Shown here piece after piece: positions 6,806-47,695 of a DNA stretch of 51,385 nucleotides. The position numbers and the translations under genes were made by a program. This DNA is from Candidatus Eiseniibacteriota bacterium (GTDB lineage: Bacteria; Orphanbacterota; Orphanbacteria; Orphanbacterales; Orphanbacteraceae): NCBI GenBank assembly GCA_043809585.1, contig JBDROZ010000012.1, positions 1-51,385 of the forward strand, read 5' to 3'. The notes under the pieces are model-generated. The model made no database searches. It was not told the origin of the DNA and saw only the letters and a program-made list of their open reading frames with translations. Every line of letters begins with the position of its first letter. Position 1 is the stretch's first letter.

Positions 6806-6982
6806 GAATCGGTTTCACAACCTCCTTCGTCGCGAGATCGAGCGAGAGGTTCGGCGGCAAGGATCAAGGGGGAAAACGCCCGGAGGTGGCCTAAGAAGGC
6901 CATTGAGGACGTTTTTACCCGAGTACGCAGCCGCCGGGCCTTGCAGCCGATCGCAGTAGAATGGAGGTTGTGAAACCGGTTC
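6806..6982 (+). mobile_element. 177 bp TA-flanked structured MITE-like element, copy E1
   Basis: TA|GAATCGGTTTCACAACCTCC...GGAGGTTGTGAAACCGGTTC|TA: 20 bp TIR with 1 mismatch, nested internal stems, alignable end to end with 46647-46823 (minus strand). Confidence 0.85.
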
Positions 6983-46072: not shown

Positions 46073-46654
46073 CTACTTCCCCAGCAGCTTCTCATAGACC
46101 TTCTTCGAGTCGGCCCTGACCTTTTCGTGGATGCTCGTGCCGTGGGAGTCGATGGTGACGATCACGGGAAAGTCCTCGACCCGGATCACCCAGAAGGCCT
46201 CGGGCGTGCCGAACTCCTCGAGCTTGTGGACGTCCGTGACCTCCTTGACCGACCGGGCGATGGCGGTGCCGCACCCGCCGACGGCGTGGAAGTAGACGGC
46301 GCCGAACTTCCGGCACGCCTCCTTCGTCATCTCGCCCATGCCCCCCTTGCCGATCACGCCCCTCACGCCGTAGCTCTCGATCACTCTCCCTTGATAGGGC
46401 TCTTCCCTGGCGCTCGTGGTGGGGCCGGCGGCCACGAAGCTCCATCGGTCCCCTTCCTTTTTCACGACCGGGCCGCAGTGGTAGATCACGCCATCCTTCA
46501 GGAGGTGGTTCAGGAAGTCGGGGCGCTCCTCGACCATCAGCTTGTGCCCCGCGTCCCGGGCGGTGACCACCGTGCCGGAGAGAAGGACCGTGTCCCCCGC
46601 CTTCAGCGCCCGAATGTCCTTCTCCGAAATCGGTGTGGTGAGTTTGGAACTCAT
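46073..46654 (-). CDS. Fe-S class I fumarate hydratase / tartrate dehydratase family, beta subunit
   Basis: TARDAGH, IYHCGPV, AGPTTS, GKGGM, FG.PEA; the current start ATG lies inside element E2. Confidence 0.9.
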   Translation of the reverse strand: MSSKLTTPISEKDIRALKAGDTVLLSGTVVTARDAGHKLMVEERPDFLNHLLKDGVIYHCGPVVKKEGDRWSFVAAGPTTSAREEPYQGRVIESYGVRGVIGKGGMGEMTKEACRKFGAVYFHAVGGCGTAIARSVKEVTDVHKLEEFGTPEAFWVIRVEDFPVIVTIDSHGTSIHEKVRADSKKVYEKLLGK

Positions 46655-46823
46655 TTCAAAACCCCTTTCTGCTGTGGCCGGCTGCAGGGACGCCCCGCTT
46701 CGTACTCGGGCGAGAATGTCCTCACCGGCCCATCCAGGGCCGCCTCCGGGCATTCCCGCCCTCGATCCTCGCCGTCCGTCCCTTCGCTCACCCTCGCGAC
46801 GAAAGGGCTATTGAAATGAGTTC
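46647..46823 (-). mobile_element. 177 bp structured MITE-like element, copy E2
   Basis: Minus strand TA|GAACTCATTTCAATAGCCCTTTC...GAAAGGGGTTTTGAAATGAGTTC|CA; colinear with E1. Confidence 0.85.
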
Positions 46824-46830
46824 TAATCAT
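46651..46830 (-). CDS. 59-codon bridging ORF running through E2 from the presumed ancestral beta-subunit start
   Basis: GGAGG-N7-ATG ATT AGA ACT ... TTG AAA TGA, translated by hand with no internal stop; the TGA overlaps the ATG at 46654. Confidence 0.5.
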   Translation of the reverse strand: MIRTHFNSPFVARVSEGTDGEDRGRECPEAALDGPVRTFSPEYEAGRPCSRPQQKGVLK

Positions 46831-47695
46831 GGCGGACCTCCCCGTTGCAGAGAGTCATCGCCTTCCGCCGGCACGCCCAGCACATGTACGAGACGGCGAC
46901 GTAGAAGGTGGCCGGGTGCCGGTGCTGCTTTCCGACGAAGGCGCCGAGAACCGTGGTCTTCCCGCCGAATCCCATGGGGCCGATGCCGAGCTCGTTCAGT
47001 TCCCGGTGGAGCCGCTTTTCGAGGGCGTCGAGTTCGGGGTCCGGGTTCCGCGATCCCAGCTCCCGGAAGAACTGCTCCTTGGAGAGGAGGAAGGAGGTCG
47101 CCCGGTCGCCGCCGATGCCAACGCCGGCGATGCCCGGGGCGCATCCCATCCCCTGGGCTTTGAAGATCGCGTCGAGCACGCACTTTCGGACTCCCTCGAG
47201 GTCCCGGCCCGCGCCGAGCCCGCCGTCGGGGAGCTTGTACTGCGTGCCGACGTTTTCGCTTCCGCCCCCCTTCAGCATCAGCCTGACCTCGATCTCATCC
47301 TTCCGCCACGGCTTGAACGAGACGTAGGGGGCGTTCACGCCGATGTTGGTGCCCGTGTTCTTTCCGGTCACCGGGTCGACCGCGTTCGGGCGGAGGAGGA
47401 TCTCCTTGGTCGCCCTCTCCGCGGCCTTCTCGATCGCCTCCCGGAAGCGGATCGTGTCCGTCCCCACCGGGTGGTGGACGTAGAAGACGAGGGAGCCCGT
47501 GTCCTGGCAGATCGGCGTTCCGTTCTCCCGGGCCATCCGGACGTTGTCGAGAATGGCCCCGAAGGTGTTCGCCGGCGTGCTCCCTTCGGGTTCCCGGTCT
47601 TTCGCCCTCCGAAGCGCCCCCTCCACGTCCGCGGGGAGGTCGGTGGATGCGCTCCGGATCAGTTCGAACAGCCGGTCCACGAGTTTTTCGTTCAT
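46823..47695 (-). CDS. Fe-S class I fumarate hydratase / tartrate dehydratase family, alpha subunit
   Basis: PICQDTG, LRPN, KGGGSEN, GCAP, GIGPMGFGG, HPA, CWACR; start MNEKL after GAGG. Confidence 0.9.
   Translation of the reverse strand: MNEKLVDRLFELIRSASTDLPADVEGALRRAKDREPEGSTPANTFGAILDNVRMARENGTPICQDTGSLVFYVHHPVGTDTIRFREAIEKAAERATKEILLRPNAVDPVTGKNTGTNIGVNAPYVSFKPWRKDEIEVRLMLKGGGSENVGTQYKLPDGGLGAGRDLEGVRKCVLDAIFKAQGMGCAPGIAGVGIGGDRATSFLLSKEQFFRELGSRNPDPELDALEKRLHRELNELGIGPMGFGGKTTVLGAFVGKQHRHPATFYVAVSYMCWACRRKAMTLCNGEVRHD

Follow-up and report, generated by a model that had tools for sequence, protein, structure and literature searches.

Insertion of a 177-bp miniature transposable element into the stop/start overlap of a class I fumarase operon, with apparent rebuilding of the junction by the element's ends

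Genes and element at the fumarase junction

The window analyzed here is a stretch of 51,385 nucleotides from Candidatus Eiseniibacteriota bacterium (GenBank assembly GCA_043809585.1, contig JBDROZ010000012.1, positions 1 to 51,385), and its subject is E2, a 177-bp copy of a repeated element that lies between the two genes of a class I fumarase operon on the minus strand. The gene for the alpha subunit of fumarate hydratase class I (46823..47695, 290 aa) is defined by its open reading frame (ORF) and translation and by a match to PF05681 (E 4.7e-76). The gene for the beta subunit, as presently read, occupies 46073..46654, encodes 193 aa beginning MSSKLTTP, and matches PF05683 (E 4.6e-47); it is the only PF05683 gene found in a genome-wide search. 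The adjacent PF05681 and PF05683 genes fit the two-subunit layout of class I enzymes, in which the relatives' stop and start codons overlap.

E2, a member of what is called family A below, spans 46647..46823 on the minus strand, as delimited by alignment to its family, by its inverted ends and by contigs of relatives that skip 46643-46823. The terminal inverted repeat on the entry side (46801..46823) begins GAACTCATTTCAATAGCCC and carries two copy-specific changes from the family consensus AAAACCCC. The repeat on the exit side (46647..46669), recognized from the sequence and from copy comparison, holds an in-frame ATG that is flanked by two TGA codons, in both other frames (TGAAATGA). The inverted ends are 23-26 nt long and 88% complementary. 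They are flanked by the target-site duplication, which reads TA on the alpha side (46824..46825) and, in a mutated second copy, CA on the minus strand of the beta side (46645..46646).

The alpha stop codon is a TAG (46825-46823) made up of the duplicated TA and the first base of the element. The alpha protein now ends in EVRHD before this TAG, so that its HD* terminus has the same length as the YD* terminus of relatives. The beta gene begins ATG AGT TCC AAA CTC (MSSKL), with the ATG placed 8 bases inside the end of the element. Between these two points, the ORF list and its translation give a bridge ORF (46651..46830, minus strand) that reads 59 codons from the old beta ATG (46830-46828) through the whole element. 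Its stop codon, TGA at 46653-46651, overlaps the new beta ATG in the sequence ATGA (46654-46651), a layout that fits termination-reinitiation, in which the stop of an upstream frame overlaps the downstream start. The alpha TAG lies two codons past the old beta ATG. The TAG, the 59-codon bridge and the restart at ATGA had been read from the sequence in a preliminary description of the locus, which had the bridge running without a stop and the beta gene restarting in frame behind AAAGGGG; each is borne out at the positions given, as is its reading of the CA as a synonymous change of a serine codon, TCC for TCT.

The bridge peptide matches no Pfam family. A scan of 46400-47000 found no promoter-like or terminator-like sites, and an outward promoter or an intrinsic terminator within the element is therefore not supported. 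A second in-frame ATG within the element (46751..46753, minus strand) opens ORF 46073-46753, which would give a beta subunit of 226 aa with an N-terminal extension of 33 residues.

Translation-start signals

The original beta gene has a Shine-Dalgarno sequence, GGAGG (46837..46841, minus strand), within an extended match GGGGAGGT (46843-46836) that lies 5 nt before the old ATG. The 3' tail of the 16S ribosomal RNA reads ...GGATCACCTCCTTTCT, given for the comparison of start signals as CCTCCTTTCT. Judged against this tail, the exit-side repeat offers a new Shine-Dalgarno-like sequence, AGAAAGGGG (46662..46670, minus strand), that forms nine consecutive pairs, one of them G-U, and precedes the new ATG at a distance of 7 nt. 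Only E2 has an A as the third letter of AGAAAGGGG, with GGAAGG in the 13 other full copies, and this A improves both the Shine-Dalgarno match and the pairing of the stem formed by the inverted ends. Given that it strengthens the stem as well, the change is not readable as an unmasking of the site. Separately, the two private changes in the entry arm (46801-46812; AAAACCCC to AATAGCCC) break pairs that adjoin the Shine-Dalgarno sequence. The private substitutions could reflect adaptation after insertion or chance, and with a single copy they are only a hint.

The element family

The genome searched is a 123-contig draft of 4.24 Mb, in which 52 matches to the element stretch are found. Fourteen are full-length family copies of 176-177 bp with 87-96% identity, and the ends are conserved across all 14. 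Nine of the full copies are flanked by TA on both sides and five on one side. For MITEs mobilized by IS630/Tc1-mariner transposases, a TA within CTAG-like sites would be the preferred target; the base that follows the TA is G in nine of the 13 full copies with an intact TA on that side, but the target of E2 was TTAA. Internally deleted derivatives that keep both ends also occur (C108:975-1037, 63 bp; C5:18561-18672, 112 bp; C114:3484-3604, 121 bp), as do solitary ends.

A sister family, B, has different ends, about 73% identity in the interior, the same TA flanks and 18 paired copies. One copy lies in the window itself, at 6806-6982, with ends GAATCGGTTTCACAACCTCC and TA on both sides; the ORF downstream of it is in frame with start codons within its repeat and probably begins at a later ATG. 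A third, larger family of TA-flanked repeats, with the end GCCTGGATTATGCATGAATCTCC, has 111 ends genome-wide, 107 of them with a TA flank. Seven third-family ends adjoin ends of A or B with a shared TA (for example C36:4163, C121:36105, C23:88707 and C105:158), which suggests nested or tandem insertions.

Among 10 genomes of the phylum, close copies are confined to the source genome, and sister-like copies appear in two others, both from a single related genus. Contigs from a sequencing run of another study (X3) carry copies that are about 90% alike. A search of 46400-47100 against Rfam in E-value mode gave no match. The inverted ends, the TA duplication, the dispersed copies, the small size, the lack of a transposase and the empty orthologous sites all fit one description, and the element is a bacterial MITE (miniature inverted-repeat transposable element).

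It likely belongs to the MITEs mobilized by IS630-type transposases; this is unproven, since the search turned up no partner whose ends match. The genome has three IS630-type transposase genes (DDE_3, PF13358), and neither MITE end motif occurs on the contigs that carry them. One of the IS630-type elements, on C122 (L059:1354-2463), is a complete insertion sequence of about 1.1 kb with a DDE_3 transposase and 31-nt inverted ends unrelated to those of the MITE. Inspection of ORF lists, by eye only, revealed no obvious transposase near 11 solitary ends. The mobilizing partner may be missing from the draft.

The junction before the insertion

The state of the junction before the element arrived can be read directly in relatives. 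The preliminary description had predicted that removal of E2 and one TA copy would restore a beta subunit beginning MIKLTTP. Two other members of the beta protein's 90% identity cluster, each of 192 aa, do start MIKLTTPIS, and element-free relatives read ATG ATT AAR CTC. One of the two comes from a 42,614-nt contig. In run X3, a contig of 42,614 nt is about 91% identical to the window on both flanks and joins 46642 to 46824 with two letters between. The same element-free join is present on a 267-nt contig from X4. On the minus strand, the X3 and X4 junction has alpha ending CAT GAT TAA and beta beginning ATG ATT AAG CTC ACC.

Six related genomes, those found at 60% identity or above in a first search (G001, G003, G004, G005, G007 and G008), were read at the junction, and none has the element. 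In four of them, which belong to the same family as the source (G003, G008, G007 and G005), the alpha stop overlaps the beta start. These overlapping junctions read TATGATTAAGCTC (YD*, MIKL), TATGATTAGGCTC (MIRL), ATGCTGAGGCTTGA (MLRL) and TATGACTGAGCTT (MTEL). For G001 (L036), the expected beta start reads ATG ACT TAA, in which the third codon is a stop.

The comparison was extended to metagenome loci, 49 of which encode a relative. The 37 examined are those with the junction present and an identity above 50%, with the short locus L126 as the exception; of the other 12, three do not include the junction and nine are less closely related. The element is absent from all 37 and none begins with MSS, so the MSSKL start is not found in any element-free relative examined. 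Two of the loci, L126 and L105, read ATGATTAAACTCAC..., which agrees with the predicted ancestor at every one of the first 14 bases.

The two proteins have changed little. Alpha is unaltered in length and sequence, with TAA replaced by TAG at the same codon. In beta, the initial M-I is replaced by M-S-S and the remainder is native; the protein is about 93% identical to its nearest neighbor (by the analysts' own count) and, of 74 columns with a conservation of 94% or more in 32 relatives, departs from none. Compared to the X3 relative, 18 of the 25 listed nucleotide differences within beta fall at third codon positions, by the analysts' own reading. The copy of the element is not brand new, given that one base of the duplication has mutated and that it diverges by about 4% from its nearest copies.

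Taken together, the empty sites in relatives and the intact beta gene support the earlier proposal that the element entered at codons 2-3 of the beta gene and that both genes were kept. A non-autonomous, TA-duplicating MITE of 177 bp entered the TA of an 8-nt overlap between the alpha stop and the beta start, where that TA served both the alpha stop codon TAA and codons 2-3 of beta. The duplicated TA and the first G of the element then formed a TAG at the same codon, leaving alpha unaltered. At the other side, the far inverted repeat brought a good Shine-Dalgarno match, a spacing of 7 nt and an ATG in frame with beta, as holds for any target TA split across a codon boundary (xxT|Axx). The insertion would thus have survived because the ends of the element rebuild what the insertion broke. 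On the strength of the base-level comparison, the insertion and the rebuilt stop and start are very nearly certain.

That a repeat copy was misplaced between the genes during assembly of this metagenome-assembled genome is hardly credible: the draft has 123 contigs, the repeat is multi-copy and no listed X1 contig spans the alpha-side junction, but a 273-nt X1 contig equals 46462-46734 without a difference and so covers the beta-side junction and the private variants, and a misjoin would not create the expected TA or the base-exact reading frames at the borders of the element.

Recurrence at other genes

The preliminary description had suggested looking for the same rescue at other copies, and one further start rescue and many stop rescues are found. 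The second start rescue is at C23:70446-70622 (L005:1501-1677), where the same element in the same orientation lies at the start of a nuclease gene with a BFN domain (PF02577, E 1.2e-37). The copy sits at the TA of GTG CCT|A.., within codons 2-3. From the old GTG, which has GGAGA before it, a 59-codon frame runs on to end in ATGA, and the gene is restarted at the ATG of the repeat as MSSSLVEVRVSGL. All eight relatives of this gene are element-free; the sequence in G005 reads GTG CCC GAA ATG ATC GAA GTA AAG.

Stop repair is more common and extends throughout the family. At 32 of 94 element ends, an ORF of 80 codons or more terminates precisely at TA plus the G of the element. Pfam domains are present in 16 of the 31 such ORFs that were scanned, and the fumarase alpha gene makes this 17 of 32. 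The repaired genes include those for NrfD, SAICAR synthetase, TrmD, ribosomal protein S6 and a Crp-type regulator. The codon before insertion was TAA or TAG, as reconstructed, in all 12 of the paired elements flagged by script.

Other candidate cases were considered and set aside. At C96:2264, the outward gene is in frame with the repeat's ATG and does not need it, since it has no Pfam match and an internal start is likelier. The outward gene at C108:1037 is likewise in frame without need, with a start of its own further downstream and its STAS domain beginning at residue 48. Copies of sister family B have five outward genes whose frame agrees with a start within the repeat; four of these, judged by eye, have a likelier start downstream, and for the fifth (C37) the next 150 nt offer no alternative in-frame start, but its frame looks spurious. 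What looked like an ORF passing through the element at C115:14970 is an antisense shadow, cast by a gene reading away from the element.

The two start rescues are best seen as survivors, from among insertions that had the ATG variant on the exit side and met their target in the xxT|Axx phase.

A folded element and a bridge across it

The RNA of the E2 locus is predicted to fold into a single rod of -109.1 kcal/mol (z -4.72), and none of 200 shuffled sequences is as stable. In the predicted minimum-energy fold, the 13 nt that contain the new ATG and the AAAGGGG stretch are all paired, such that the new start and its Shine-Dalgarno sequence lie in the terminal stem. The old GGAGG and ATG are predicted to lie outside the rod, where they still overlap the end of alpha.

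This anatomy points to a possible relay. Ribosomes would enter at the old site, whether directly or once they have completed alpha two codons downstream, and would read the 59-codon bridge through the rod, unwinding it. Termination at the UGA of AUGA would be followed by a restart on beta, and the original translational coupling would thereby be relayed in two steps. It is probable, as far as the sequence can tell, that beta is translated from the ATG of the repeat. That the bridge ORF relay matters for this translation fits the anatomy and the modeled fold, and may be entertained tentatively, at somewhat less than even chances. The statement as a whole, which combines insertion, a rebuilt junction and the relay as the leading but unproven route, is put forward with moderate confidence. 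That the arrangement has been selected to tune the alpha:beta ratio, as had been suggested at first, is unsupported and improbable.

A number of observations weigh against the restart and its relay. The bridge frame stays open in 935 of 2000 (47%) dinucleotide-preserving shuffles of the interior, and a reading of the bridge ORF as a sign of selection is rejected for this reason; across the family, common descent accounts for its being open in 23 of 28 copy-orientations. The rod is predicted to be so stable that it could equally block ribosomes or be cut by RNase III. The ends of family A carry ATG in 22 of 48 cases and ACG in another 22; the restart signal is therefore not fixed in the family, nor is it one of its conserved features. 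Outward genes in frame with the repeat's ATG number four of 11, which is the chance rate, and two of the four do not need it. Public gene calls use the MSSKL start, and the 226-aa alternative is not on record in the protein collection, but the choice made by gene callers is not biological evidence. Finally, a gene of the class II fumarase/aspartase type is also present (one PF10415 match, on C62), so the class I enzyme may not be indispensable.

The placement of elements at stop codons belongs with these points as well, given that its enrichment is limited. It is seen in 13 of 35 cases compared to a crude null of 19.3% (p 0.011), or about twice expectation. The null is the share of non-coding and stop-codon TAs that fall within the stop codons of gene-like ORFs. 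Leaving out the fumarase copy gives 12 of 35; that copy was added by hand since its G+C content at third codon positions (GC3) is 0.72, below the script threshold of 0.75. In the crude set of gene-like ORFs (100 codons or longer, with a GC3 of 0.75 or above), which is inflated by antisense frames, TAG stops are as frequent as TGA stops (2694 and 2549), with 564 TAA.

Other routes to the beta subunit

The same insertion and the same new start might function with the bridge ORF being irrelevant. Ribosomes would then initiate directly at the Shine-Dalgarno sequence and ATG of the repeat, with the rod breathing, folding late, or being cut by RNase III to free its 3' arm, in the way suggested for Correia and ERIC transcripts. 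The new Shine-Dalgarno sequence pairs over 9 nt at good spacing, and the openness of the bridge frame in 47% of shuffles means that no selection on it need be invoked. The rod is predicted to be a long near-perfect duplex of the kind that RNase III cuts, and RNase III processing is described for transcripts of Neisseria MITEs in the portions consulted of one report (PMC2229807). The two private changes in the entry arm also break pairs beside the Shine-Dalgarno sequence. Set against this, the ATG and Shine-Dalgarno sequence are fully paired in the minimum-energy fold, the old start is intact and strong, such that the bridge would be translated whether needed or not, and both start-rescue copies keep the 59-codon frame. 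Direct initiation is a possible route and the chief competitor of the relay, with perhaps a one-in-four standing among the readings.

Beta might also be made from the in-frame ATG at 46753, as a protein of 226 residues with a 33-residue extension encoded by the element. The frame is open back to 46753, and this ATG has a GAGG 6 nt upstream. Single-chain class I fumarases carry their beta domain behind a linker, and for that reason added residues at the N-terminus might be tolerated. This ATG is also paired in the rod, though, its Shine-Dalgarno sequence is weaker than that of the repeat, the 226-aa sequence is absent from the protein collection, and in the BFN case it is again the repeat's ATG that yields a near-native N-terminus. 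An extended beta subunit is quite improbable.

The insertion might instead have silenced beta, with the class I fumarase becoming a pseudogene and a class II enzyme covering the step. The PF10415 (FumaraseC_C) match in a 490-aa open frame on C62 would supply such an enzyme, and the rod could block translation. The state of the beta gene argues otherwise: it is full length, keeps all 74 highly conserved columns and differs mostly at third positions, and it is intact although the element copy is old enough to show a mutated duplication and about 4% divergence. The independent BFN gene has the same intact arrangement. Silencing is very improbable.

Beyond the single locus, the family might be regarded as a self-insulating, translation-neutral cassette in either orientation. 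The TA plus G would close one frame and the TGAs the other two, the Shine-Dalgarno sequence and ATG would lead out, and the open interior would let ribosomes cross and unwind the rod. As a description of the family, this is doubtful.

Relation to known elements

Relays that use leader peptides are a related case, as in tap-repA of plasmid R1, where translation of a short upstream ORF, which stops at or across the start of the downstream gene, opens a structure that hides the downstream ribosome site. Relays of the tap-repA type are evolved regulatory devices, whereas the bridge of E2 would be an accidental read-through of a transposon.

Correia/NEMIS elements of Neisseria and the ERIC elements of enterobacteria resemble E2 in size (100-200 bp), terminal inverted repeats and TA duplication, and their transcripts form long stem-loops that are co-transcribed with neighboring genes, according to the consulted portions of one report (PMC2229807). 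They have no sequence relation to E2, for which Rfam gives no match. In the sources available in part, they are described as promoter, integration host factor (IHF)-site or RNase III modules, or as in-frame ORF fusions, rather than as elements that reseal a junction with a stop codon and a Shine-Dalgarno sequence plus ATG.

The QMITE1 and QMITE2 elements of Coxiella burnetii reach 1-50 bp into the 3' ends of functional genes with little change in protein size, as given in the part of the paper that was available (PMC5896051). This overlap resembles the stop repair at the 17 Pfam-supported genes here. The QMITE cases are 3'-end overlaps only, and the main text of that paper contains neither 'start codon' nor 'N-termin' (PMC5896051), whereas E2 also rebuilds a 5' end.

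Rickettsia palindromic elements (RPE) are, like E2, palindromic mobile elements that lie within genes, in their case essential genes, without destroying them (PMC10969869, in the portions consulted). RPE are translated within the host protein, whereas E2 is kept out of both proteins by a TAG on entry and an ATG on exit. An in-frame coding insertion of the RPE type is ruled out at the fumarase junction, where alpha is closed at the first base of the element and beta starts 8 nt before its end.

REP2 of Neisseria supplies a ribosome site and an ATG, as an upstream promoter and 5'-untranslated-region module in the accessible part of its description (PMC3184786). It is not a transposon with terminal inverted repeats and a target-site duplication inserted in an existing start, and it has no bridge ORF. 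Chunjie, a MITE from Geobacter uraniireducens, has 9-bp direct repeats rather than TA, and one copy 'disrupts' one copy of an operon according to one review (PMC10969869); the portions of the sources available for Chunjie make no mention of rebuilt stops or starts.

In sum, stop repair or 3'-end overlap, promoters, RNase III sites and in-frame peptides are already known for other MITEs, as the partly available literature attests. The accessible text of a 2024 review of MITEs has no occurrence of 'stop codon' or 'start codon' (PMC10969869). Within the literature on MITEs that was searched, as far as its available text extends, no account was found of a MITE resealing an overlap of stop and start codons, nor of an ORF that spans a transposon and relays translational coupling.

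Significance

The junction is well documented at the level of sequence. Transposon insertions in operons are usually thought to be polar and destructive; here, close relatives give the exact state before insertion, and the ends of the element demonstrably put back a stop codon and, in two genes with no relation to each other, a ribosome site together with a start codon. Even if the relay is unneeded, the case is a tidy example of how survivorship shapes where MITEs are seen.

Were the cassette description true of the family, the element could colonize stop and start codons, which hold much of the scarce TA in a GC-rich genome, and direct coupling at gene starts would be converted to a relay by way of a transposon-encoded ORF. 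The fumarase beta and BFN nuclease genes would then have initiation signals derived from a transposon. The case bears on how small mobile elements persist in gene-dense, TA-poor genomes, and on how new translation initiation regions and short upstream ORFs may originate in one step.

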